Origin: Minisyncoccia bacterium
GTDB taxonomy: Bacteria; Patescibacteriota; Minisyncoccia; Phycocordibacterales; UBA918
NCBI GenBank assembly: GCA_041738755.1
Contig: JBGSPE010000011.1
Coordinates: forward strand, 70,658-134,657
DNA: 64,000 nt
Direction: 5' to 3'
Positions 32,086-44,156 of the stretch are shown piece after piece (the stretch's first letter is position 1; each line of letters opens with the position of its first letter). The translations under genes and the position numbers were made by a program. A model generated the notes under the pieces. That model was not told where the DNA came from, did no database searches, and saw nothing but the letters and a program-made list of their open reading frames with translations.

Positions 32086-32225
32086 AATTTAAAATTTAAT
32101 ATGTAACATAAACAGTATAGCTACCTACTTTACTTTGTAAAGTATGGCAATATGCGCACGCATCTAATACCATCCGGGCCATTAGGAATGTAATCGTGTT
32201 CTTTTCGACCGTGAGGGCACAAACG

Positions 32226-32256
32226 AAAAAGGCACCCTTTGCAGGGTGCTTTTTTT
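32226..32256. terminator. Bidirectional terminator hairpin
   Basis: aaaaaggcaccctttgcagggtgcttttttt. Confidence 0.45.
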
Positions 32257-32257
32257 A

Positions 32258-32475
32258 TGTGTGCTCCCGCCAGGAAGTTCGGTCACTCTCATGGATATTT
32301 TGTCGCTTGCGACAAAATATCTCATTCGCTCGACCCCCACTCATTGCGGTCCTCGGCTACCGCCTGCGGGCTTCGCCGCAACTCGGTTCGATTCCTGGAG
32401 GAAGCTACAACGGCAAAGGCCCAGAAAGTATTCACTTTCTGGGCCTGCCATTTGTGCTCCCGCCAGGAATCGAAC
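32258..32475. repeat. Region containing two extra copies of a 17-23 nt tRNA-Arg 3'-end fragment (cctggcgggagcaca) and an oppositely oriented tRNA T-arm fragment
   Basis: tgtgctcccgccaggaa at 32258, 32448 and, in the intact tRNA, 32611; ggttcgattcctgg on the + strand at 32385. Confidence 0.5.
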
Positions 32476-32614
32476 ATTACATGTTCAGTACAGGTTGTCG
32501 CTATTTTTACAAAATAGCTGGCAACCTTTTCGATTCTTGCCACGGATTTTTTACAAAAATCCTGCAACTGGCGGAAGCACGAGAAAAGCCGGCTAACGCC
32601 GGCCACCCTTCTTG

Positions 32615-32686
32615 TGCTCCCGCCAGGAATCGAACCTGGAGCACCGGTACCGCAAACCGATATTTTATCCATTAAACCACGGGAGC
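32615..32686 (-). tRNA. tRNA-Arg with an apparent GCG anticodon (unusual)
   Basis: Acceptor GCTCCCG/CGGGAGC, anticodon stem TCGGT/ACCGG with loop TTGCGGT, T-loop GGTTCGATTCC; D- and T-arms nearly identical to tRNA-Arg(TCT). Confidence 0.55.
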
Positions 32687-33316: not shown

Positions 33317-33405
33317 GGAGGGATGGCTGAGTGGTTGAAGGCGGCAGTCTTGAAAACTGTTAAGGGTTTACGCCCTTCGAGGGTTCGAATCCCTCTCCCT
33401 CCGCC
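33317..33405 (+). tRNA. tRNA-Ser (anticodon TGA), long variable arm, CCA encoded
   Basis: Acceptor GGAGGGA..., anticodon loop CTTGAAA, variable arm, T-loop GGTTCGAATCC. Confidence 0.85.
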
Positions 33406-33498
33406 AAGTCGTGCTAGCACGAGACGCGTCAAAATGGCGCTACTCTAGCAAGTAAAAAGCTCGTCAGAAATGACGAGCTTTTTACTATCTGTTGATAT

Positions 33499-35262
33499 CT
33501 ACTGACTAGATTTTTGAATATGTTGAATGATTAAATTACGATTTTTTAACCTAAACGAATGACACAATGCGACTGCCTCAAATTGAGCAATTTTAGATTC
33601 AAATCGTCTTGCTTCAAAATTTGCACGAGTCATGGCTGTTCCGTGGGCACACGCCATTACATAAATTCGTTCCTTTTCCGTAAAAAGAGTAACGAATTCA
33701 TCCTCCGACATCTTTGCCCGCTCTCCCGCATGCCACCTTTGGTAATACTCTCGCAACTTACTACCATCTCCTCGTGCTGACTCTTCAATCACATCAGCGG
33801 CTATTTCCAGCTGCGAAACAGCATCCCGTACGGAACCAGCAAAACCATCTTTAACCTGAATTATATAGAGCTTATTTTCCGAAACATGAAGCAAATCAAA
33901 GAGTTCGACTTTCCCTCTTCCGTCCCAAAGATAATATTTGTCCCCGAAATAAAAATTATCGCTATCGATATAAGCCTCGTTATAAACACCTTCATCTGCA
34001 TGATTCCAGTTAATAAAAGGTATGTCAGTACTCAGATGACCACGCTCAAATAACTGTTCAACCAGGTCTTCAAGAAGATAGTCGAAAAAACTACCAACAG
34101 GTTCATACCATTTACCATCAACATAGAAGTATGTCTTTCCGTCGATATGTACTTCACCATGAAAGTACTTCCTCAGCTTAGCCTCAAAAGGTGCGGCATC
34201 CTCATGGGCCTTAAAAGTGAAGTCAAATTTTTCAAAGCTTTTTATAAACTCATCAATACCTTCATGATAGTTCACCAAGTTAGCTGTTCGCATATGTTGC
34301 AAAACCTGTACAGCATTCGGAGCATGAGCTTCGTCGACCATTGAATTTCCTACTTGATACTCACACCCAGACAAAAACTCGGTCACACTCTCAGGGTGAC
34401 AAAAATCATAATCAGCTACTCTACCGTAGGTATCGTCCACTAACGCACGATAGAAAATTGTAAGTAATGAGGTTTCGAGTCGTTCTCTCATTTGCTTTGA
34501 CTTAACCTCAGCAAGAGTGTCGAGGTATTTAAACTTTTCTTTACGTTCAGCGCTCAGTGCGGGCAAGCCTTGGAGAGCATTTATGAGCTTAATTATTTGC
34601 TCCAGATTCACTGATTTACGGAAAGTAAACGACGACTTCATTTCGGCACTAATCTTTTTTCGATGATCTAGCACAAGACTTAGCTCCGGATTGTTCTGAA
34701 TGATGGTGGCATCAATTTCCCCGTACAGTTTTTTCCAGACCTTTCCAAAAGCTTCTGAGCGAGAATAACTGTACGAGCGGCGGTAGTTCTCTGTTTTTGA
34801 GTATACTTCACTCACTAGGTCACGTACTTCCGCGTATTTGAACTCACCTTGAAATAACTTTTTTGAGACCTCTAGGGGAAATGAGTCATCAGTGTAGGTT
34901 TGAATGGCGAAATAACCTGCGCCGGCTGTGAGTACAAAGATGTCATTTACATCATATACAAATAAAATGAAGTCCTTGTTTATACTTTGGAACAGTTCAG
35001 AATTATTACGCTCGTCCTCATTTATTGGATCTACAAAATCCGCCCAGGTAAAGGAGATGCGTTTTTTATTAAATAATTGGATTCTTTTTTCTTGGAACGT
35101 TGCGGCAACGTTTACTGGCGATAGTTTAAAGTCTTCATTTTGCTCTTTAGTATTATAGTTTTCAACTATAAGTCCTATAGTCTGATCAGTCGTCATACCA
35201 GCAAACAAAGTCCGATCTCTATCTATTTTCCAAATTGCAAGGTTGCTTTTCTTTTCTGACAT
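33499..35262 (-). CDS. Large uncharacterised protein (587 aa); possible C-terminal PD-(D/E)xK-like nuclease motif
   Basis: ELFDLLHV...LYIIQVKDG resembles the hhD...(E/Q)xK nuclease core; last gene of the cassette. Confidence 0.35.
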   Translation of the reverse strand: MSEKKSNLAIWKIDRDRTLFAGMTTDQTIGLIVENYNTKEQNEDFKLSPVNVAATFQEKRIQLFNKKRISFTWADFVDPINEDERNNSELFQSINKDFILFVYDVNDIFVLTAGAGYFAIQTYTDDSFPLEVSKKLFQGEFKYAEVRDLVSEVYSKTENYRRSYSYSRSEAFGKVWKKLYGEIDATIIQNNPELSLVLDHRKKISAEMKSSFTFRKSVNLEQIIKLINALQGLPALSAERKEKFKYLDTLAEVKSKQMRERLETSLLTIFYRALVDDTYGRVADYDFCHPESVTEFLSGCEYQVGNSMVDEAHAPNAVQVLQHMRTANLVNYHEGIDEFIKSFEKFDFTFKAHEDAAPFEAKLRKYFHGEVHIDGKTYFYVDGKWYEPVGSFFDYLLEDLVEQLFERGHLSTDIPFINWNHADEGVYNEAYIDSDNFYFGDKYYLWDGRGKVELFDLLHVSENKLYIIQVKDGFAGSVRDAVSQLEIAADVIEESARGDGSKLREYYQRWHAGERAKMSEDEFVTLFTEKERIYVMACAHGTAMTRANFEARRFESKIAQFEAVALCHSFRLKNRNLIIQHIQKSSQ

Positions 35263-35347
35263 AAGTTGCTTTTATACACTTTTAACTATTCGACCAGTTA
35301 ATTATGCCGCTATCAAAACAACCTGGCAGCTAGCCGCCAACTGCAAA

Positions 35348-36151
35348 CTATGTTGTAGCGGCATTTATATCTGCTGCGGTTTTTTCAATTAAATCTTTAA
35401 GGGAATTTGCCTCTAAAGTGATGATTTTCTTCGTACCGTAAGCTAGATTCAGCTCCTTCATTAGTTTTCGAACTCTCTCTCGAGAACTGGCAAACTCAGT
35501 ATGGGTACCTAGATAATCTAGGACTGATATTAAGATCCGATTTGATCGTCCCATCGCACGTTCGAGCACCTGCTGATAGATATCTTGAGTAGACAGCAAA
35601 ATACCAGTGTAGTAATAAGGATCGTCCTTCTTTAACCCTCCAAAGAATTCTGGATCGGTCTCCCACGGAGCATGTGTCAGGTGTGCAGCCCACCACAGTC
35701 GTGCGATTGCATGACGACGAAGATCGCGATCGTTGCCACTAATGAACCAGTGTTCAAGTAGGTAGTTAATTGCTTTACTTTTTTCCACCGAATCCTTAAG
35801 GCTCTCGAGGGATACATTCAGCCCCCATCGGGTGAGAGAGTATTTTCTAAATTCCACATGACTCAGGTAAGTCCATAGTCGAGGATCGGACGCCTGTGTT
35901 TCGTCTAGATTTTTGTAGTGCTCGTGGAGTGAAATGGCGTTGTCCAAATCAGCAGACACAGGATCTTTTTCAGGTGTCGCAAGTACCGGTGGCTTGCCCC
36001 CAAGAGCTATTGTAGAAGTGAGTAGTTCTGCTTCGTTCACTGGAAAATCTTCCTTGAAATAGTTTTCAAGAGAAATTCCGGACCGCAAATCATTGCGCAT
36101 CTTATCGACTACCGCCCGTTTAAATATTTTTTGTGCAAGGTTTTTACTCAT
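35348..36151 (-). CDS. Uncharacterised protein (267 aa), cassette component
   Basis: ORF; 8-nt overlap with the upstream gene (translational coupling). Confidence 0.35.
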   Translation of the reverse strand: MSKNLAQKIFKRAVVDKMRNDLRSGISLENYFKEDFPVNEAELLTSTIALGGKPPVLATPEKDPVSADLDNAISLHEHYKNLDETQASDPRLWTYLSHVEFRKYSLTRWGLNVSLESLKDSVEKSKAINYLLEHWFISGNDRDLRRHAIARLWWAAHLTHAPWETDPEFFGGLKKDDPYYYTGILLSTQDIYQQVLERAMGRSNRILISVLDYLGTHTEFASSRERVRKLMKELNLAYGTKKIITLEANSLKDLIEKTAADINAATT

Positions 36152-36917
36152 ATTCTTCTTCGTCTGCTGTGCTAATAAGTGTACTTATACCCGCATATCC
36201 GCGTGATGCTGGATTATCCAAGATCTTCTGCGCTGCTTCAAACGGATCCTTATCGTCGAGTCTCTTCGCTTCAAGTATGGCAGTCAACCTACCATACCAA
36301 TTCGCATTCTCGTACTCGCTATTTGACGTCTGAATTTTATGAATAGCATCAACAAGAGCTGGGAAAACTATGGCGCTGTGAAGTATGCCCTGAACTGGCT
36401 TCTGTCCGCGTACCTCGAGGTAGTTCCGCCAATCAACCTTAGACAGAACAATAGTGATTTTTTCTGTTTCGTAATCAATCTGCATCGGACCCTCGTGTTG
36501 TGTACCTTCCATGATTGACATGAATGAAGAGACAGGGGGACGTAGTGGATCAAATGCCTTTTCCGCAATAAATGATGCTTGTCCTCCTACAGCTAGAATT
36601 TCTCCAGCCTCAATGTTAAAAGTTTCACCCTCGTAGTCGGAGTGCGGTTCTGTTGGACGATACCCTTTAATGTTTTGGTCCGCACAGATTGAGAAAGTAA
36701 CAGTGACGCGTTCACGGAGCATCTTGGAAGGAATGGTCATTTTGTCATCAAGTTTACGCGTTGAAAAACTCCTGCGGAAGAATGTGCTTCGACACTCAAC
36801 TTCGATTGTGAATGAGGCCTTTTCTTTCTTCAATAATTCCTCTATTCCGCCGTTCTTCAAAGAGAATGACGGGCTGAGTGTTACCGCGTCTCGGCCAAGT
36901 TCGTACGGTAACTCCAC
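36144..36917 (-). CDS. Uncharacterised protein (257 aa), cassette component
   Basis: ORF co-oriented and tightly spaced with flanking cassette genes. Confidence 0.35.
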   Translation of the reverse strand: MELPYELGRDAVTLSPSFSLKNGGIEELLKKEKASFTIEVECRSTFFRRSFSTRKLDDKMTIPSKMLRERVTVTFSICADQNIKGYRPTEPHSDYEGETFNIEAGEILAVGGQASFIAEKAFDPLRPPVSSFMSIMEGTQHEGPMQIDYETEKITIVLSKVDWRNYLEVRGQKPVQGILHSAIVFPALVDAIHKIQTSNSEYENANWYGRLTAILEAKRLDDKDPFEAAQKILDNPASRGYAGISTLISTADEEEYE

Positions 36918-36977
36918 TTTGAAGAAGCCCCGAGGTCATCCCCGTTGCTGAGTACCGGATGTGGATATGATTTAGTG

Positions 36978-38903
36978 TTAACCTTCATATGTTTCTATGC
37001 CGAGAGCATACTTATTCGCTGACGGAAGCTTAACCGCAAGCTTTAATGTTTCTCCGACTTTGACAATTAGACCTTTTATAATCGAGTCGCCGATTTCGTA
37101 TACTTTTCCGCTCTTTACATCTTTAGCCGATACAATATCCACTGGGTAACTACCATCATCGCCGACAGCGACTATACGTATAGAACCTTCACAGTCTTCA
37201 TGCCCAGTAATAGCTAGGCGGTATTCCATTCCATTTTTCGAATCATGTACGAAACTACGAAATGAAATGGATGATGTTTTGATTCTCATACCATCGTCTG
37301 TTCCGGACTTTGCTCCAGTCTCACGACTACGAGTACCACTACCCGGGCCTTCTGGTGGTACATGTATCACTTTATCTTGTTGCTTATTTGTCACAATGCT
37401 CTTACGTGTAACCGAGCTTGTATCAGCAATGTCCGCATCGCGATCTGCACCAATTTCCCGACCTGACTCTATGCCGGTTGACATACCAGTCTCTTCAAGA
37501 GCCTCACTACCATCAGAAGGCATGTAATCACGCTCTTCGCTGTCAGGAAGATAGCGGTCAAGTCCAGGGATATCCTCAGGCTCACTTGTCAGCGACTCAG
37601 CCATAGTCTTCAGCGACTGTTTTATAAATAAATCAAGCTCTCTAAGAGCCGCCGGTCCCTTGGAGGAACGTGCGTGATCCCACTTATCATGCGCGGGTGG
37701 TTCTATGTCACGAAGTATTTCATTGCCACGATCATCTTCACAAATAAAGACTCCTGAGTACGGTTCTCGCAAAACTCGATATGCTTTCTCCTGTACGAGC
37801 ATCTTTGGCTTACGCACCATCATGACTCTGCTAGGATAGCCGTCGTTTTTACGAACGTATAACTTGACCTTACCTAGATTTCGCAGGTCTTGTTCAAATA
37901 TATTGCTCGACGGGCTGGTTACCGCATCAAAATGGAAACGAGCATCCCCAACATCATAATCTTCAAAGCATTGCTGAAGATTGTCTTTAGTAATTACTAG
38001 CTCTCCACCATCACGAATGGTAACTTCTAGGTTACCGTGAAGAATGGTCAGCCAAAAATTATGTAGCACCGATTTAATAAGTTTCTCTTCCCATTCTGGA
38101 CCAGCATCGTATCCCATAATGAATATATCTGTACCGCGCTCTTCGCGTTTGAACAAAGAAGGAACGATATCGGCCTGCCTGATTGCTTTATATCCTTCAA
38201 CTCCAAAAAATCCAACACCCTGGCGTACATCCTTCTTTTCATTGTGATGACTAACGAGGCGAGCCTTTCCTTGGCAAACGAGTTCATTTTTGTCATTGAT
38301 GCTTGAATAGAAAACCGTACGTAGCAAGGACGCAGCAATAGGCGCACCTTTGCCGATACCGAAAGAACCTCCCCCCACTCCCTTAAAGTTACTGGTACCT
38401 GCAGCACGTACGAGACGGTACCAATTCCCTTCAACTTCCGAGTCCCCTCCTGAAAGTCCCTTGGTATTGAAATCACTGATTTTAAGAACAGGTAGTTTGT
38501 TACTTTTAAGAAGGGCGATAGCGTCTTTGAAGAATTTTTCGGCTTTTTCCTGACCTTTCACGAAGACAAGACACTGATGCATACGCCTAAGCAACTCGTC
38601 CCGACCCGGCACATCTTTAGGATTCACTGTCAGCCGTTCAAATACCACTGATACCGGTACATTGTATTCTAAGCGTGCATCTATAGAGTTTTGAATCGCC
38701 TCACGAGCGATATATTTCTCATGATCACCTTGGAAATATTCTAGAAGTGAGTCGGAAAATCCGTGATTCTCACCATGATCTGTGCTCGGGAAAAACCAAC
38801 AGAGATCTGCACTCTTCTTTTCTTCCTCCTTCGTTACTTTTTTTATTGAGGCCTTCTTTTGGTGTTTGGTTGGCATGTTATTAAAGTTTGAATTCTTTAT
38901 CAC
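36978..38903 (-). CDS. GHKL-superfamily (HATPase_c / MORC-MutL-like) ATPase, 641 aa
   Basis: N-box EAIQNSIDA and G-box NFKGVGGGSFGIGKGA of the Bergerat ATP-binding fold; long Ser/Gly/Asp-rich linker and a C-terminal beta-rich region. Confidence 0.6.
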   Translation of the reverse strand: MIKNSNFNNMPTKHQKKASIKKVTKEEEKKSADLCWFFPSTDHGENHGFSDSLLEYFQGDHEKYIAREAIQNSIDARLEYNVPVSVVFERLTVNPKDVPGRDELLRRMHQCLVFVKGQEKAEKFFKDAIALLKSNKLPVLKISDFNTKGLSGGDSEVEGNWYRLVRAAGTSNFKGVGGGSFGIGKGAPIAASLLRTVFYSSINDKNELVCQGKARLVSHHNEKKDVRQGVGFFGVEGYKAIRQADIVPSLFKREERGTDIFIMGYDAGPEWEEKLIKSVLHNFWLTILHGNLEVTIRDGGELVITKDNLQQCFEDYDVGDARFHFDAVTSPSSNIFEQDLRNLGKVKLYVRKNDGYPSRVMMVRKPKMLVQEKAYRVLREPYSGVFICEDDRGNEILRDIEPPAHDKWDHARSSKGPAALRELDLFIKQSLKTMAESLTSEPEDIPGLDRYLPDSEERDYMPSDGSEALEETGMSTGIESGREIGADRDADIADTSSVTRKSIVTNKQQDKVIHVPPEGPGSGTRSRETGAKSGTDDGMRIKTSSISFRSFVHDSKNGMEYRLAITGHEDCEGSIRIVAVGDDGSYPVDIVSAKDVKSGKVYEIGDSIIKGLIVKVGETLKLAVKLPSANKYALGIETYEG

Positions 38904-39096
38904 GGTTAGGGAAGGTGAATTTTGATTTCGCTTCTCTAATCTTTTTTTCTATTTCAGAAAAAATCTTATTCACCTCATCCTCAGTGTAATCGTAATGGCT
39001 ACGGTTCGCACAGTTGGCCAGTATTTTCACACGTCGAAGCACCTCATTTGTCCGAGTAGTAGCAAGCCTCTTAAAATTTTCTCTCCTGTCATCCAT
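38881..39096 (-). CDS. Small (71 aa) basic protein preceding the GHKL ATPase; possible regulator
   Basis: ORF overlapping the GHKL start by 23 nt; located between Dcm and the cassette. Confidence 0.3.
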   Translation of the reverse strand: MDDRRENFKRLATTRTNEVLRRVKILANCANRSHYDYTEDEVNKIFSEIEKKIREAKSKFTFPNRDKEFKL

Positions 39097-39202: not shown

Positions 39203-40177
39203 TCACGATTCAAGGGCAATACGAATATTTTCTGCAATTCTAGAAATAACAGGAACAGTTACTGAATTACCGACCTGCTTGTAAAGATGTGAGTTCGCCT
39301 GGTCTTTAGGCAGTTTGAACGACTCGGGAAATCCTTGGAGACGGGCGCATTCGCGCGGAGTGAGTTTTCTAATTCCTTTTGCATCTCTAATGATCGGCAC
39401 ATTATGGCCACCCATACCCATACTCGCTGTAAGTGTCGGAGCCATGCCATTCTTGAGTTCGCGAACGTATACGCGACGATATTGGTAGAACCGATCGCGG
39501 TGCTTTACAGCTTTCTTTACCCTGTCGTATATCTCGCCATAGCGCTTATCATAATAGAATTCATCTCCTACATTCTTTTCCAAAATGTTAGACATTTTCT
39601 TCGTGAGCACTATCTCATCTGGAAAGCGGAACTTCATAAGTGTCCTCGGCGAACGGAACGCGACAATATAAATTCGCTCTCTAGATTGCGGAACGTTGCC
39701 GTGCGTCGAACTATTGAGAACTTGTGCCTTCATGTAGTAACCAGCATTTTTTAATTCCTCTTCTATCCGCTTGAAGGTTTTTTCATCGTCGTGATTCATG
39801 AGGTGCTTTACGTTCTCGAGGAATACCGCATCTGGCTTCCGACTTTTGAGAATATCAATCACCGCGAACAGTGCATTACCTCTGTTCTTAACATCTTTAA
39901 ATCCCTGCTTATTGCCAGCAACAGAGAATGGTTGACAAGGAAAGCCTCCGAGAAGAATGTCAAAACGCTTAGGTACTTTCTTCATATCTGAATCCTTAAT
40001 CACCTCAAAAAGATCTCGATTGTCTAATTCGCCAAAATTAAGCTTATATGTTTCGGCAGCATGCTTATCAAAATCATTCGAGTAAGCTATTTCAAAACCC
40101 GCAGATTCAAATCCAATACGAATGCCACCGATACCGGCAAACAAGTCAATCGCCTTTAAATTCTTTTTACGCGCCAT
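39203..40177 (-). CDS. dcm: DNA (cytosine-5)-methyltransferase
   Basis: Motif I DLFAGIGG, motif IV GGFPCQPFS, motif VI ENV. Confidence 0.85.
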   Translation of the reverse strand: MARKKNLKAIDLFAGIGGIRIGFESAGFEIAYSNDFDKHAAETYKLNFGELDNRDLFEVIKDSDMKKVPKRFDILLGGFPCQPFSVAGNKQGFKDVKNRGNALFAVIDILKSRKPDAVFLENVKHLMNHDDEKTFKRIEEELKNAGYYMKAQVLNSSTHGNVPQSRERIYIVAFRSPRTLMKFRFPDEIVLTKKMSNILEKNVGDEFYYDKRYGEIYDRVKKAVKHRDRFYQYRRVYVRELKNGMAPTLTASMGMGGHNVPIIRDAKGIRKLTPRECARLQGFPESFKLPKDQANSHLYKQVGNSVTVPVISRIAENIRIALES

Positions 40178-40235: not shown

Positions 40236-41566
40236 CAGCTAACACTTTATATGCTCAACTTTTTACCTTGCATAAAGATAGTCGAACTAAAGCAGGAAAT
40301 CACGTCCCGCTTCTCCTCCATCGTTCCATCTTTAAGTAGGAACTTCACATAATCCTTCACATCAATGTCGCTCACAGCCACGTCCGACCTCTCCCCTAAC
40401 AGTGACCTGTGAAATTTCTTGTATCTGATTACCTCAGCCTCAACTTTCTTTTTAACTCTCGTCTCGTTGAGATTTGCCGTATCGATGAGCTTTTGAAGTT
40501 ATGTTATTAGGTCATCTTCATTGATGTAGCCACACGGACAATGCGGGTCTCTTGCTTTCGTACATCCGTAATAGACATGAGTCTTTATAGTCCCGTTCTT
40601 ATGCTTCTTATACTTTGCATCAGCACTAATGCCAGATCCACATAGCCCGCATGTCATGAGTTTAGTAAATGCAAACTCTTTATCTTGTCGTGTCTTTAGT
40701 TCATTACCTTTAAGCTGTACTTGAACAAGGTCGTAAAGTTCTTTTGTTATGAGTGGTTTGTGTTTACCCTGATACCAGTTCCCGCTGTCTCTTGGGTATT
40801 CAAAGACGCCATAGTAGAAGTGATTCTCAAGCAAGCGGTAAATGTTACCAAGACTGAGTGGCTTCTTACTTGGAAGAGCTTTAAAGTTAAGGTCAAACTT
40901 AAGCCAGTGATACAGCTTTCTCCCACTCCACTTATCGTACGCTACTTTTTCAAACATCTGCTTCACAACATGTCCTCTTTCAGGATCGATTAGCGTCTCG
41001 CACTTTCGATCCATTCGTTTTTCTTTTAAGTACCCAGTCGGCGCTGGTGCGGGCCAGAGTCCCATTTCAACTCGTGTCTTTAAACCTCGCTTCACATTGA
41101 TACTTTTGTTGTCGTTCTCGAGCTTTGCCTGAGAACAGAGAATCATTAGTAGAAACTTTTCACTTGGTGTATTTGTGAACGTCTGTCCATACGTTCGTAT
41201 CTCGTGTAGCAAATGTTGATCCATAAGGTCTACGAGTGATCCTAAGTCACCAGCATTACGGCTAAGGCGATCTGGATGCCAAACAATAATCCCGTTAAAT
41301 CTTTCTCTTCGAATGTCCTCCAGTATTTCTTTAAAAACAGGACGTTGTCCAGAGTCTTTCGCAGAATGTGACTCTCTTCGTATCTCTACTATGTCCAACC
41401 CCTCACGTTCAGCGATAGCAAGCATCTCTTTAACCTGTGAATCAATTGAGAGCGCTTGCTTCTCATCAGATTCGGTAGATTTTCTAGCGTAGAGCAAATA
41501 TTTAACAGGTACTTTTGGTACCTCAGTTTTAACCCCAAAGTTGTTCATCATCTGTGTTTCCATCAT
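40236..41566 (-). pseudogene. Large serine recombinase interrupted by an in-frame TAA (stop at 40499..40501); the frame continues for 84 more codons
   Basis: Resolvase catalytic domain YARKSTESDEKQ, recombinase domain, zinc ribbon CGLCG...C..C, then ...NEDDLIT*LQKLIDTANLNETRVKKK... in the same frame. Confidence 0.65.
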
Positions 41567-41902
41567 TAATTAATGACAGAACCATGTATGGTGCAAAGCT
41601 ATGCAGAACTAGGTAAACGTCGCATACTCCTCCTTAAGACTTAGCAAAACAGCAAACGTGCGATAGGGTGAAAACGGTAGCAAAAACTGTTATTATGTTC
41701 GTTACAACACCTAAACCAGATAGTAATTTCTGGCATGGTGCAAAGAAATCCTACGCAAATAGAAACGGCCACATAAGCCGGCACTTATTTGCGTAGGTTC
41801 GCTCTCGAAAGGGAGCGGGATAATTCCGAAAGGAGTTGTCGTCGGTCTTGTGTGGCCATTTGTGTTACCAAGATTTTATAAATAAAACCTACGCAAAAAA
41901 AT

Positions 41903-42112: not shown

Positions 42113-42488
42113 GCTTCATAAATTTAGCAAGCATATCTTCCATAGTCTTCAATTCACCCTCGTCTAACTTGTCTGGTGGAGGCTGTTTGGATATAGGTAC
42201 ATTATCTGATTGTGGTTTATAACTCGGATGTCGGTGTTGGAGCCAAAAGCGTACAGCTGCCCAGTTTTTCTCTTGAGCCATCCTCAGTAACTGACTCTCA
42301 GTCATATCGTTCATGTTAGCAATACCTTCCTGCATCGCCTTATCCATTTCAAGTTCAAATCCATGGTCCTCACGACACCAACGGTAAACAGTTTGCCTAG
42401 CAATACCGACTATTTTGCAGGCATTCAAGACATTGGGTACTTTCCGAAGCTCATCGAGGAATTGCTTCGAGTACTTAGGCTTTTTCAT
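42093..42488 (-). CDS. HTH protein resembling the phage terminase small subunit N-terminal DNA-binding domain
   Basis: KYSKQFLDELRKVPNVLNACKIVGIARQTVYRWCRED pattern. Confidence 0.4.
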   Translation of the reverse strand: MKKPKYSKQFLDELRKVPNVLNACKIVGIARQTVYRWCREDHGFELEMDKAMQEGIANMNDMTESQLLRMAQEKNWAAVRFWLQHRHPSYKPQSDNVPISKQPPPDKLDEGELKTMEDMLAKFMKLKKESV

Positions 42489-43785
42489 AATAGCCTTTAA
42501 TTATCTCCGCCTTTTTGCCTGTCAGCTTCTCGTACCTATTGATTGCCAGTTGGCAAAAGATGGGCTCAATCTCAGTGGCATACACTCGACGCTTCAACTG
42601 TTCAGCCGCAATCATGGTACTCGCTGATCCAGAAAATGAATCAAGGATAATATCGCCTGGCCTAGAACAGCGTTTGATAGCTTTTTCGTGTAATGTCGGT
42701 GGTTTAGAGGTGGCGTGTTCGTAGTCCTTAGAATTGAGTCGTTTTGCACTCCAAACGTTTGTAACGTCTTCTAGCAGCTCGTTGCCAGTACCTAGCTCCT
42801 TATTCATTATCTCGTTAGCGTTACGCACTTGGTCAGACAAGAATGGTGAACCCGTAGTGCCATAGACGCAGAACTCAGTCACTTTGTTGAAAGCTACGGT
42901 AGGGGTCGGGGAAGCGTTATTCTTCAGCCATAAATTTAGACGGCGGTTTTTGATACCCAGCTCGTTATAGAGAGTTTGGAATACCCACACCCACGCCTCA
43001 TCACACCAATAAAAGTAGTGTGCATCAGGTTGTGTTACCGACATTGCTGCTTTGAGTGACTTCTCAATAAAGGACTTATACTCACTAGCAGTTTTATTAT
43101 CATCTACCGTACCGCCATAGTTTTGCTTATTCCCAACGCCTTTGTCATAGCTTAAACCAATATTATAGATTGGGTCGCTATAGACCATGGCGGCTTTGTC
43201 TCCATTAAACAGCGCCTTAAGCGCATCAGGGTCAAGAGCATCGGCACAAAGGAGTTTATGGTCACCAAGGATAATCAGATCACCTAGCTCTATATCAGTC
43301 TCCTTAATTTTCTTTATCTCCTTGTCTGGATTAAACGTGTCGCCTTTAACTTCTACTTCCGCGTCCCAGAACTTACTCAACTCAACTTGGTCAAATCCTA
43401 TATCAGTTAGTAGCTCAAGACCAAAGTCTTTGAGTAACTCGTAGTCCCAGTCACCAGTTACAGCGTTAGAAGTGATGAGATACTGTCGGTACTCATCTTC
43501 TGTTAGCTTACGATTAGGAACTCGTACATCAATTACTTCTTTACCTCGTCCCAGTAACTGCATCACCTTTAGTCGTTGGTGACCAGCCACTATTCGACCA
43601 TCAGTATCAATCACAGGGATTTCAACTAGGTTGAACTTGGTAAAACTTTTCTTCAGGTCAGATAATTGCTTTGAGCTAATAGTACGAGGGTTCTTCTCAT
43701 ACGGTATTAGCGTATCGACAACACGGGTTTCCGTGTGCCATGAAAGAGTGTTCATGAGCGTATAGTTACGCGAATAAAATTGCAT
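42475..43785 (-). CDS. ParB-like nuclease domain fused to a beta-class N6-adenine/N4-cytosine DNA methyltransferase
   Basis: N-terminal ParB-N-like region (GHQRL); motif IV SDPIYN (DPPY) precedes motif I ILDSFSGSAST. Confidence 0.75.
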   Translation of the reverse strand: MQFYSRNYTLMNTLSWHTETRVVDTLIPYEKNPRTISSKQLSDLKKSFTKFNLVEIPVIDTDGRIVAGHQRLKVMQLLGRGKEVIDVRVPNRKLTEDEYRQYLITSNAVTGDWDYELLKDFGLELLTDIGFDQVELSKFWDAEVEVKGDTFNPDKEIKKIKETDIELGDLIILGDHKLLCADALDPDALKALFNGDKAAMVYSDPIYNIGLSYDKGVGNKQNYGGTVDDNKTASEYKSFIEKSLKAAMSVTQPDAHYFYWCDEAWVWVFQTLYNELGIKNRRLNLWLKNNASPTPTVAFNKVTEFCVYGTTGSPFLSDQVRNANEIMNKELGTGNELLEDVTNVWSAKRLNSKDYEHATSKPPTLHEKAIKRCSRPGDIILDSFSGSASTMIAAEQLKRRVYATEIEPIFCQLAINRYEKLTGKKAEIIKGYYEKA

Positions 43786-44156
43786 ATAGTGCCTGCCTAT
43801 TTCTAGACCCGGACTTTTTTCACAAATTTCATCGCGACCATTAACTTACGTCATGATCGTTACTTAGACGATATACCTACTGGGCTGTAATTGGAAGAGT
43901 ACACAGTTGTACACCTTGTGGATAGCCGAGTAACAAAACGAAACAAAAAAGTTACAGGGTACTGTAACTTGAGAAGTGAAAAATCTGTCACTTTTGTCAC
44001 TTTTTAATGAGCACGAGACCCTTCGATTTATGAACCTCGGAAGTAGCAAAACGGCCAAGCCCTGCTTGACGGCTCACGGTTCTAGCACGAGACGGCCCGC
44101 TCATTGAAAATGCACCCATCTTGGGTGCTATTTTCTAGAGTGGAGAGGATTAAACT

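Follow-up and report, generated by a model that had tools for sequence, protein, structure and literature searches.

A methyltransferase-linked GHKL-type ATPase locus in a Minisyncoccia bacterium as a copy of the candidate defence system PDC-M33

In the window, the 64,000-nucleotide stretch of Minisyncoccia DNA analysed here, five minus-strand open reading frames (33499-39096) lie downstream of a cytosine methyltransferase gene, and the initial annotation read them as a candidate novel five-gene restriction or defence cassette centred on a GHKL ATPase. This raises the question of which genes form a unit, whether the methyltransferase belongs to it and how such a unit would act. An ORF check found all five frames with the lengths and positions first assigned to them. 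The core of the proposal also holds: a methylase-linked module of several genes, with a GHKL-type ATPase at its centre and in mobile or defence-related surroundings, is upheld by a gene order that recurs in other genomes. Judging from sequence comparison, there is a somewhat better than even probability that the locus is a copy of a mobile methyltransferase-linked, methylation-gated, ATP-dependent defence module, the PDC-M33 candidate.

The conserved unit and the island that carries it

The methyltransferase, Dcm (39203..40177, minus strand), is a C5-cytosine DNA methyltransferase (Pfam DNA_methylase, E = 2.4e-84; TIGR00675) whose nearest solved relative is M.HhaI, matched over the full length (E = 1e-55). 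Four further minus-strand genes follow: s71, a protein of 71 residues that opens the effector module (38881..39096), the GHKL-type ATPase (36978..38876), protein B (36144..36988) and protein C, of 267 residues (35348..36151). The reading frames of B and C share 8 nt, as first described. The ATPase was initially given, from the ORF list, as a 641-residue frame (36978-38903) whose start overlapped the 71-residue gene. Its homologues (at least 632) all start at the position of the ATG at 38876, as does the NCBI model; the protein therefore has 632 residues, and the s71 gene ends 4 nt upstream of it with no overlap.

A PADLOC search showed that ATPase, B and C match PDC-M33A (E = 1.9e-141), PDC-M33B (E = 3.3e-54) and PDC-M33C (E = 1.5e-35), in consecutive co-oriented genes and in the PADLOC order, so a system proposed as novel is already catalogued. 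Protein C also matches Pfam DUF6339 (136.7 bits, cut-off 23.2). The large proteins had been described as belonging to no nameable family: no named function is attached to them, but the families exist (PDC-M33A/B/C, DUF6339 and, for the fifth gene, DUF6119/TIGR04141). PADLOC terms its PDC systems “unpublished candidate systems” (PMC11811056), and a literature search found no paper on PDC-M33 or DUF6339. Copies on plasmids of Lactococcus, Priestia and Ligilactobacillus match the same models. The PADLOC definition comprises three genes, to which we add s71 and a neighbouring methylase that may be accompanied by Vsr; the window copy differs in carrying a frameshift in B.

Almost every one of 57 species-level loci repeats the order s71, ATPase, B, C; the four genes are co-conserved across these loci, and the arrangement is far beyond chance. 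Homologues of s71 lie directly 5′ of the ATPase gene in about 40 loci. The conserved unit thus comprises a C5-methyltransferase, often with Vsr, followed by s71 (71 residues), the ATPase (632), B (281) and C (DUF6339). It occurs in CPR, Bacteroidota, Deinococcota, Bacillota, Actinomycetota and other taxa; the family is common in Patescibacteria and is also found on plasmids of Lactococcus, Priestia, Planococcus, Arthrobacter and Deinococcus. Small Patescibacteria genomes carry it especially often. Plasmids, prophage-like contigs and serine-recombinase islands carry the block, as do six IMG/VR viral contigs, and serine recombinases flank it in 10 other loci. Its neighbours elsewhere include CBASS, Shedu, AbiG, AbiE, DarT and type II restriction-modification (R-M) systems.

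In the window, the island’s mobility gene is a large serine recombinase of 355 residues (40499..41566, minus strand; Pfam Resolvase, Recombinase and Zn_ribbon_recom), which stops shortly past the zinc ribbon. A repeat search returned a 16-nt direct repeat (33411..33426, plus strand, with its partner at 44079-44094) as candidate limits of a 10.7-kb island, the end of which abuts a tRNA-Ser(tga) gene (33317..33406, plus strand; ARAGORN and Rfam). The 12-mer core of the repeat has three matches with at most one mismatch (two of them exact), against 0.16 expected.

The fifth gene of the proposed cassette (33499..35262, minus strand) encodes a 587-residue DUF6119/TIGR04141 protein (Pfam E = 1.4e-21, 77.2 bits against a cut-off of 27; TIGR04141 E = 1.1e-19, 70.3 bits against a cut-off of 35), from a family with 521 cluster representatives; no sequence match was found in the PDB. 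The DLLHV...IIQVKDG segment is present, and its suggested likeness to PD-(D/E)xK nucleases agrees with an invariant D...K core of the kind that a putative nuclease with a restriction-endonuclease fold would have. The family invariants are E424, E453, D456, K471, R479 and Q484; in an alignment of 39 sequences the first four are invariant and the residue two before the lysine is H or Q, neither D nor E. Together with the lack of a recognisable nuclease in the core and the location of the gene directly 3′ of C, these residues could suggest a five-subunit machine in which the DUF6119 protein brings the nuclease missing from s71, ATPase, B and C. We consider such a machine very unlikely. Outside the window, just one species has the gene next to the module, in the same position (loci L006, L007 and L067, whose contigs are identical or nearly so). 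It is missing from about 50 other module loci, including the three closest relatives and relatives with an 80-88% identical ATPase. Between the two co-occurrences the DUF6119 proteins are 40% identical, versus 65-69% for the core proteins. An 85-nt gap separates the gene from C and contains a terminator-like hairpin (35326..35344, minus strand, detected by a consensus scan only). Four other loci carry DUF6119 without the module, beside Mrr-like, Shedu or unrelated genes, and the window protein has no PADLOC match. Its solitary occurrence elsewhere marks the gene as a neighbour of the module, not one of its subunits, and the five-gene cassette reduces to four genes and the methylase. The DUF6119 gene is better described as an independent predicted nuclease gene of the same island.

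Protein B had been listed as a protein of 257 residues (36144-36917). This frame is what remains of a gene of 281 codons which starts at the ATG at 36988, overlapping the ATPase stop codon (ATGAAGGTTAA), and which has suffered a 1-nt deletion at 36929/36930 (window CTCGGGGCTTC versus CTCGGAGGCTTC in relatives). Homologues of B have 281 residues and the N-terminus MKVNxKSYPHPVLGNGDD, with an invariant YPxPxL peptide. The deletion strips B of this conserved N-terminal motif, so the window copy may be inactive and the module is probably damaged here; Dcm may be a functional orphan that acts alone.

Linkage of the module to DNA methyltransferases

The methylase had been regarded as a mere upstream neighbour of the cassette, a view which the comparison of loci overturns. 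Of the 39 loci with flanks long enough to score, 35 have a C5 methylase no more than 912 bp from the module: 28 carry it upstream and co-oriented, the other seven downstream and convergent. Dcm identity across loci co-varies with ATPase identity (Spearman 0.956), and the identities of Dcm, B, C and s71 all track that of the ATPase (Spearman 0.86-0.96). Dcm is part of the conserved unit and is co-inherited with s71, ATPase, B and C. In other lineages the four-gene block lies beside larger Dcm enzymes or beside HsdM and HsdS, and in Ligilactobacillus the position of Dcm is occupied by the type I subunits HsdS and HsdM, which points to functional coupling between methylase and module.

Defence genes generally cluster, and a shared location could also arise if the module were a modification-dependent (type IV-like) or abortive-infection system that makes no use of the neighbouring methylase. 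On plasmids of Arthrobacter, Planococcus and Priestia the Dcm next to the module has its own type II endonuclease, so that the linkage could partly reflect clustering with R-M genes, and no adjacent methylase was found in four Clostridia loci. We nevertheless rate this explanation as improbable: the methylase abuts the module across phyla in two fixed arrangements, the identities of methylase and ATPase co-vary, no other endonuclease was found alongside Dcm in the CPR loci, and the replacement by HsdS and HsdM has occurred in place.

The ATPase and its partners

The ATPase comprises an N-terminal ATPase domain, a middle region with an invariant ExxxH-W pattern, an acidic linker and a C-terminal β-rich domain. 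The two motifs by which it had been recognised, EAIQNSIDA and GVGGGSFGIGKGA, are both present, and the description of the linker as acidic and Ser/Gly-rich is accurate (21 Asp and Glu and 30 Ser, Gly or Thr per 95 residues). We defined GHKL membership by motifs I-IV in order (ExxxNxxD, a DxGxG-like motif, GxxGxG and GT). These correspond to E59/N63/D66, D135/T138/G140, G170/G173/G175 and G248, which are kept in 31-32 of 32 diverse members; conserved in the same set are R58, Q62 and K176, and further invariants are R355, N385, E392, H396 and W399. T249 is invariant in a 12-sequence alignment. The window ATPase has no Pfam or NCBIfam match, and no sequence relative of it was found in the PDB; among 21 diverse members, two match HATPase_c_3 below threshold (best E = 0.0017). 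From these motifs and matches the protein is probably a GHKL-type ATPase, and it is probably paraMORC-like.

Likeness to MutL is confined to the N-box. An hhalign comparison with residues 1-350 of E. coli MutL aligned only 14-17 N-box residues with a probability below 4%, and DQHA of the MutL endonuclease motif DQHA(X)2E(X)4E was not seen in the ATPase sequence, so we rejected its assignment as MutL. The same result bears on a repair role. MutL stimulates Vsr in E. coli, and Vsr is encoded in 22 of the 39 loci, so one might picture the ATPase as a MutL-like accessory of Vsr in very-short-patch repair of T:G mismatches left by deamination of 5-methylcytosine. That picture is extremely improbable: neither the window nor 17 of the 39 loci encode Vsr, the module is also found next to the N6-adenine enzymes HsdM and HsdS, on viral contigs and near Abi, CBASS and Shedu genes, and B, C and s71 would be left unexplained.

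The partner proteins show few signs of catalysis. The small protein s71 is basic, as first noted (pI 9.6), and displays the conserved pattern F..A..R...L.NC.N...Y.Y....V.K.F, with no match among Pfam or PADLOC families. The model of B (pLDDT 86) shows an Ig/FN3-like β-sandwich and a helical domain, and has no nuclease-like structural match. Protein C is all-α and aromatic-rich, and no relative of its helical fold was found in the PDB. It was also considered as a HEPN RNase, and a conserved Rx4-6H in a four-helix bundle was not found. Neither B nor C has invariant charged residues, and s71, B and C showed no nuclease fold, no other effector domain and no invariant acidic/His catalytic set. Within the core, enzyme-like invariants are confined to the ATPase (GHKL motifs I-IV, R355, N385 and ExxxH-W). 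The patch formed by N385, E392-x3-H396 and x2-W399 would accordingly be the only likely place for a further site of catalysis or substrate contact.

Relation to known systems and possible mode of action

We know of almost no GHKL ATPase from an R-M operon that has been studied. Iyer, Abhiman and Aravind (2008) predicted a role in R-M systems for paraMORC ATPases of the GHKL type that are linked to Dcm and Vsr (PMC2292703). The module resembles these operons in having a GHKL ATPase by Dcm and Vsr and a sporadic, laterally mobile distribution. Most of the MORC/paraMORC R-M operons include an SF2 helicase or a restriction-fold endonuclease (PMC2292703), whereas the module has neither and pairs its ATPase with s71, B and DUF6339. 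An ExxxH motif is described after the ATPase of paraMORC2 (PMC2292703), and the invariant E392-x3-H396 stands in a like position, a similarity that comes from the published description only. In proven anti-phage defence, a GHKL ATPase is found in the GHKL-Shedu protein VcSduA (paraMORC3; PMC12137116); there a DUF4263 PD-(D/E)xK nuclease is fused to the ATPase in one polypeptide, and no such domain was detected in the module.

Like type I R-M, the module would combine a methylase with an ATP-dependent multi-subunit effector, and in Ligilactobacillus the block occupies the hsdR position after hsdS and hsdM. It differs in lacking an SF2 translocase and a PD-(D/E)xK nuclease and in its usual partner, a type II-style C5 methylase; we rejected a type I assignment as no gene has a helicase domain and HsdS and HsdM accompany the Ligilactobacillus variant only. 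A classical type II system was also rejected: the methylase is present, but B and C show no nuclease fold and s71 no family match. AbiR, from the Lactococcus plasmid pKR223, is a multi-gene system beside R-M genes that relies on the C5 methylase next to it and turns toxic when that enzyme is missing (PMC13064643), and so offers a precedent for methylase-gated non-classical defence. Its proteins are the σ70-like AbiRa, the ParB-like AbiRb and the SNF2/endonuclease AbiRc, with no GHKL protein, B or DUF6339 (PMC13064643), while lactococcal homologues of the module match PDC-M33 models only. The module is not AbiR, as the components differ and no PADLOC match besides PDC-M33 was found at E up to 0.01, save for generic methylase models (e.g. 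DrmMII, DruM) matched by Dcm. BREX, DISARM and MANTIS would share with it methylase self-marking, ATPases and proteins of unknown role, but no shared components were detected.

In the favoured reading, the methylase would mark the host’s own DNA, and s71, ATPase, B and C would form an ATP-dependent complex directed against unmodified incoming DNA, like the restriction half of an R-M system. ATP may drive dimerisation of the ATPase, which would then clamp DNA or loop it in the manner of MutL, MORC and topoisomerase VI-B, with the invariant R355 as a putative phosphate-sensing finger; B (β-sandwich and helices) and C (helical) could serve as non-enzymatic adaptors or DNA readers. With no recognisable nuclease in the core, this complex might either cut DNA or merely block it.

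The second of these could take a BREX/MORC-like form, in which ATPase, B, C and s71 entrap or compact DNA not marked by the methylase and so halt its replication. GHKL proteins act as clamps whose dimerisation is driven by ATP, and BREX is to our knowledge a methylation-based defence in which no nuclease has been identified; these precedents, with the restriction of enzymatic features to the ATPase, make such a non-cutting block conceivable, if rather unlikely. The N385/ExxxH-W patch could instead be a new metal site, and the middle or C-terminal domains of the ATPase may hold a nuclease fold. There is likewise a small chance of nuclease-free, methylation-gated immunity in which a MORC-like GHKL clamp and three small or non-enzymatic partners trap or silence unmethylated invading DNA; alternatively, the patch could be a new nuclease site.

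For the window itself, where the copy is probably damaged and Dcm may act alone, the practical weight of the locus is smaller. For the family, the comparison defines the real unit (methylase, s71, ATPase, B and C), removes a false component, the 587-residue gene, and narrows the candidate catalytic residues to a single protein, the ATPase, while the exchange of Dcm for other enzymes indicates that one effector block can be served by more than one kind of methylase. Plasmid copies in culturable Lactococcus, Priestia, Planococcus, Arthrobacter and Deinococcus make ordinary hosts usable for testing. If the module does act without a nuclease, it would represent a new mechanism in methylation-based immunity, tied to eukaryotic MORC biology as a bacterial counterpart of MORC silencing.

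A methylase-linked four-gene block

The ORF listing for 28-45 kb of the window contains exactly the five minus-strand ORFs claimed by the initial annotation, with the gene of a C5-cytosine methyltransferase (Dcm, 39203-40177, minus strand) upstream of them, and the motifs it quoted are present in the window. A homologue scan restricted to a single genome for each species yielded 57 loci, spread over Patescibacteria, Bacteroidota, Deinococcota, Bacillota, Omnitrophota and other groups. In tBLASTn searches and in a clustering of all ORFs around these loci, four genes keep a fixed order in this block: s71 (71 aa), a GHKL-type ATPase (632 aa), protein B and protein C. The feature is genuine and not a product of chance. 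The proposal of a methylase-linked GHKL defence candidate holds, while the unit boundaries first drawn were wrong: the fifth gene (587 aa; 33499-35262, minus strand) lies outside the unit.

Linkage to the methylase was counted in the 39 loci that have 1.5 kb or more on each side of the block. A C5 methylase lies within 912 bp in 35 of them: in 28 it is upstream in the same orientation, in the other 7 downstream and convergent. Its identity to the window Dcm tracks that of the ATPase (Spearman 0.956, n = 29), as do the identities of B, C and s71 (Spearman 0.86-0.94), and co-inheritance with the methylase is thereby demonstrated. Vsr is encoded in 22 of the same 39 loci. A role of the block as a Vsr repair helper is an unlikely rival model.

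The four exceptions without a near C5 methylase belong to a Clostridia variant (seen in the six loci L044, L045, L047, L050, L053 and L054), in which a conserved protein of 920-1020 aa (324 aa as called in L050) precedes s71, in the position of Dcm. This protein has a sigma70-region-4-like HTH and no methylase domain; its identification as AbiRa is unsupported, the sole match being a 34-residue HTH match to MzaA. L053 has an N6/N4 methylase downstream of the block instead.

Mobility is likewise demonstrated: the block occurs on six IMG/VR viral contigs and on plasmids of cultured bacteria. Dcm, Vsr and a hypothetical gene precede it in Deinococcus, and an AlwI-family endonuclease, Vsr and Dcm in Planococcus. 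The Arthrobacter plasmid has Dcm, Vsr, a type II endonuclease and DUF3320 before the block and Shedu after it, and in Priestia a convergent Sau3AI-family endonuclease and Dcm come after the block. It adjoins AbiG in Lactococcus and comes after HsdS, HsdM and a small ORF in Ligilactobacillus. The methylases beside the block are demonstrably swappable. Neighbours elsewhere include CBASS, AbiE, DarT and serine recombinases, a demonstrated defence-island context. A type IV-like or Abi system which merely clusters with restriction-modification genes is a less likely rival reading, against which the shared inheritance of Dcm and ATPase speaks.

The large proteins had been described as beyond any nameable family, which is incorrect. 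PADLOC models PDC-M33A, PDC-M33B and PDC-M33C match the 632-aa (E = 1.9e-141), 257-aa (E = 3.3e-54) and 267-aa (E = 1.5e-35) proteins, respectively. The 267-aa protein C is Pfam DUF6339, and the 587-aa protein is DUF6119/TIGR04141, with no PADLOC match. For s71, profile searches of Pfam, NCBIfam and PADLOC gave no family match. PDC systems have been termed unpublished candidates (PMC11811056). Our literature search found no paper naming PDC-M33 or DUF6339, and no functional information on PDC-M33, DUF6339, DUF6119 or TIGR04141. The window locus is thus a member of PDC-M33, a candidate family already catalogued and uncharacterised.

The ATPase and its partner proteins

Across 32 ATPase sequences with identities down to ~25%, the invariant residues are R58, E59, Q62, N63 and D66; D135, T138 and G140; G170, G173, G175 and K176; and G248. 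Judged from sequence, GHKL motifs I-IV are represented by these four groups, in the correct order, demonstrating an intact ATPase signature. Profile evidence is weak, with sub-threshold HATPase_c_3 matches in 2 of 21 members. Ties to solved structures or to MutL do not extend past the N-box, to which the hhalign alignment with MutL is confined, and there is no PDB sequence match. Beyond the motifs, R355, N385, E392, H396 and W399 are invariant in the 32 sequences. The ExxxH motif agrees with the published paraMORC2 signature (PMC2292703), which we treat as a lead and not as a test.

Conservation in B and C was assessed in ~52 diverse sequences. Apart from the initiator M, the only conserved residues of B are P9, P11, L13, G129, A133, L212 and W231; those of C are N71, A87, W93, Y104, L152, W153, W154, T159 and T182. 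Neither protein has a charged catalytic set in this sample, which leaves the ATPase as the single enzyme of a core in which no nuclease is recognisable. A PD-(D/E)xK nuclease fold was rejected for B, whose model is a beta-sandwich with helices, with only generic FN3/Ig matches and no invariant charged residue. Some DUF6339 homologues (P0318, P0328 and P0329; 370-383 aa) carry a fusion to PF08299, the C-terminal DNA-binding domain of DnaA (a DnaA-type HTH), which hints that protein C may act on DNA.

The window copy and its island

The ATPase starts at the ATG at 38876 in every homologue and in the NCBI model of the identical protein, giving 632 aa. The 71-aa gene consequently does not overlap it, as had been annotated, and ends 4 nt before this start, a spacing also seen in the closest relative. 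The 257-aa ORF is not a complete gene; it is the downstream remnant of a frameshifted B. Homologues of B are 281 aa and have the N-terminus MKVNxKSYPHPVLGNGDDLGGFF, which the window encodes from the ATG at 36988, overlapping the ATPase stop. One base has been lost at 36929/36930 (CTCGGAGGCTTC in relatives, CTCGGGGCTTC in the window). Because the frameshift takes away this universally conserved N-terminal peptide, the effector of the window copy is probably disabled, unless the frameshift is an assembly error.

An 85-nt gap holding a terminator-like hairpin separates C from the 587-aa DUF6119 gene. A five-gene machine including DUF6119, as the initial annotation had it, is not borne out: besides the window, the gene adjoins the block only in L006, L007 and L067, near-identical Magasanikbacteria/Paceibacterota contigs in which DUF6119 is 40% and the core proteins 65-69% identical to those of the window. 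The three closest relatives (ATPase 80-88% identical) lack it, and four other loci have it without the block, beside Mrr-like, Shedu or unrelated genes. Scanning metagenomes for DUF6119 with a single protein as query found nothing; a narrow alignment as query found 6 loci. The family counts 521 cluster representatives. Its invariant residues are E424, E453, D456, K471, R479 and Q484, a pattern compatible with a putative restriction-endonuclease-like core. We conclude that this is an independent gene within the island, possibly also defensive.

In the window Dcm, motifs IV (PCQ) and VI (ENV) are present, and the resemblance to M.HhaI runs along the full length. Avoidance of GCGC, the M.HhaI site, is not notable in the window (observed/expected 0.87), so it does not back a call on Dcm specificity. 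GATC is strongly under-represented across the whole window (105 observed vs 224 expected, ratio 0.47; other 4-nt palindromes 0.82 to 1.03), which hints at a GATC-specific restriction system in the host, present or past.

The putative island spans ~10.7 kb between tRNA-Ser and a 16-nt repeat. Besides the block, it carries genes for a short serine recombinase, a ParB-like N6/N4 methylase and an HTH protein, as well as a LOOT RNA. The 16-nt direct repeat lies at 33411-33426 and 44079-44094 (GTGCTAGCACGAGACG and GTTCTAGCACGAGACG), its first copy beginning 5 nt past the tRNA-Ser 3' end, with a partial third copy (AGCACGAGAC) at 44011-44020. The pair bracketing ~10.7 kb may mark island limits or att remnants. 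The large serine recombinase (40499-41566, minus strand; 355 aa) stops directly past its zinc-ribbon domain; those beside other copies of the block have 470-630 aa, and that of the closest relative is short too (331 aa). The protein may be truncated, and the island would then be immobile. Between its gene and the HTH gene lies the LOOT RNA (41708-41840, plus strand; Rfam RF03000, 72.5 bits vs a gathering score of 46.4). The N6/N4 methylase (42475-43785, minus strand; 436 aa, with an N-terminal extension) is the second methylase here, and no endonuclease partner is visible for it; a relative that lies in L059, next to a different copy of the block, has a weak ParB_N match.

The region 32190-32629 is extremely structured (minimum-free-energy z-score -12.7 on the minus and -13.5 on the plus strand) and matches no Rfam family. 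The final 17 nt of tRNA-Arg(gcg), TTCCTGGCGGGAGCACA, are found there in three minus-strand copies: that of the tRNA itself at 32613-32629, and two more at 32453-32469 and 32260-32276, with perfect hairpins between the copies. These repeats could have been left behind by repeated integration at the tRNA, or could represent a small repeated element.

A possible mode of action

AbiR of Lactococcus, a non-classical block which depends on an adjacent methylase, offers a precedent, with proteins unrelated to those encoded here. Identity with AbiR, suggested by the Priestia- and Lactococcus-type contexts, was rejected: the proteins differ, and PDC-M33 HMMs alone match. MANTIS and MADS have different components. 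In the mechanism we propose, the methylase would shield self DNA, and a four-protein ATP-dependent complex would act on unmodified DNA, which would be cleaved, perhaps via the ExxxH-W patch of the ATPase, or merely blocked, as by BREX or MORC.
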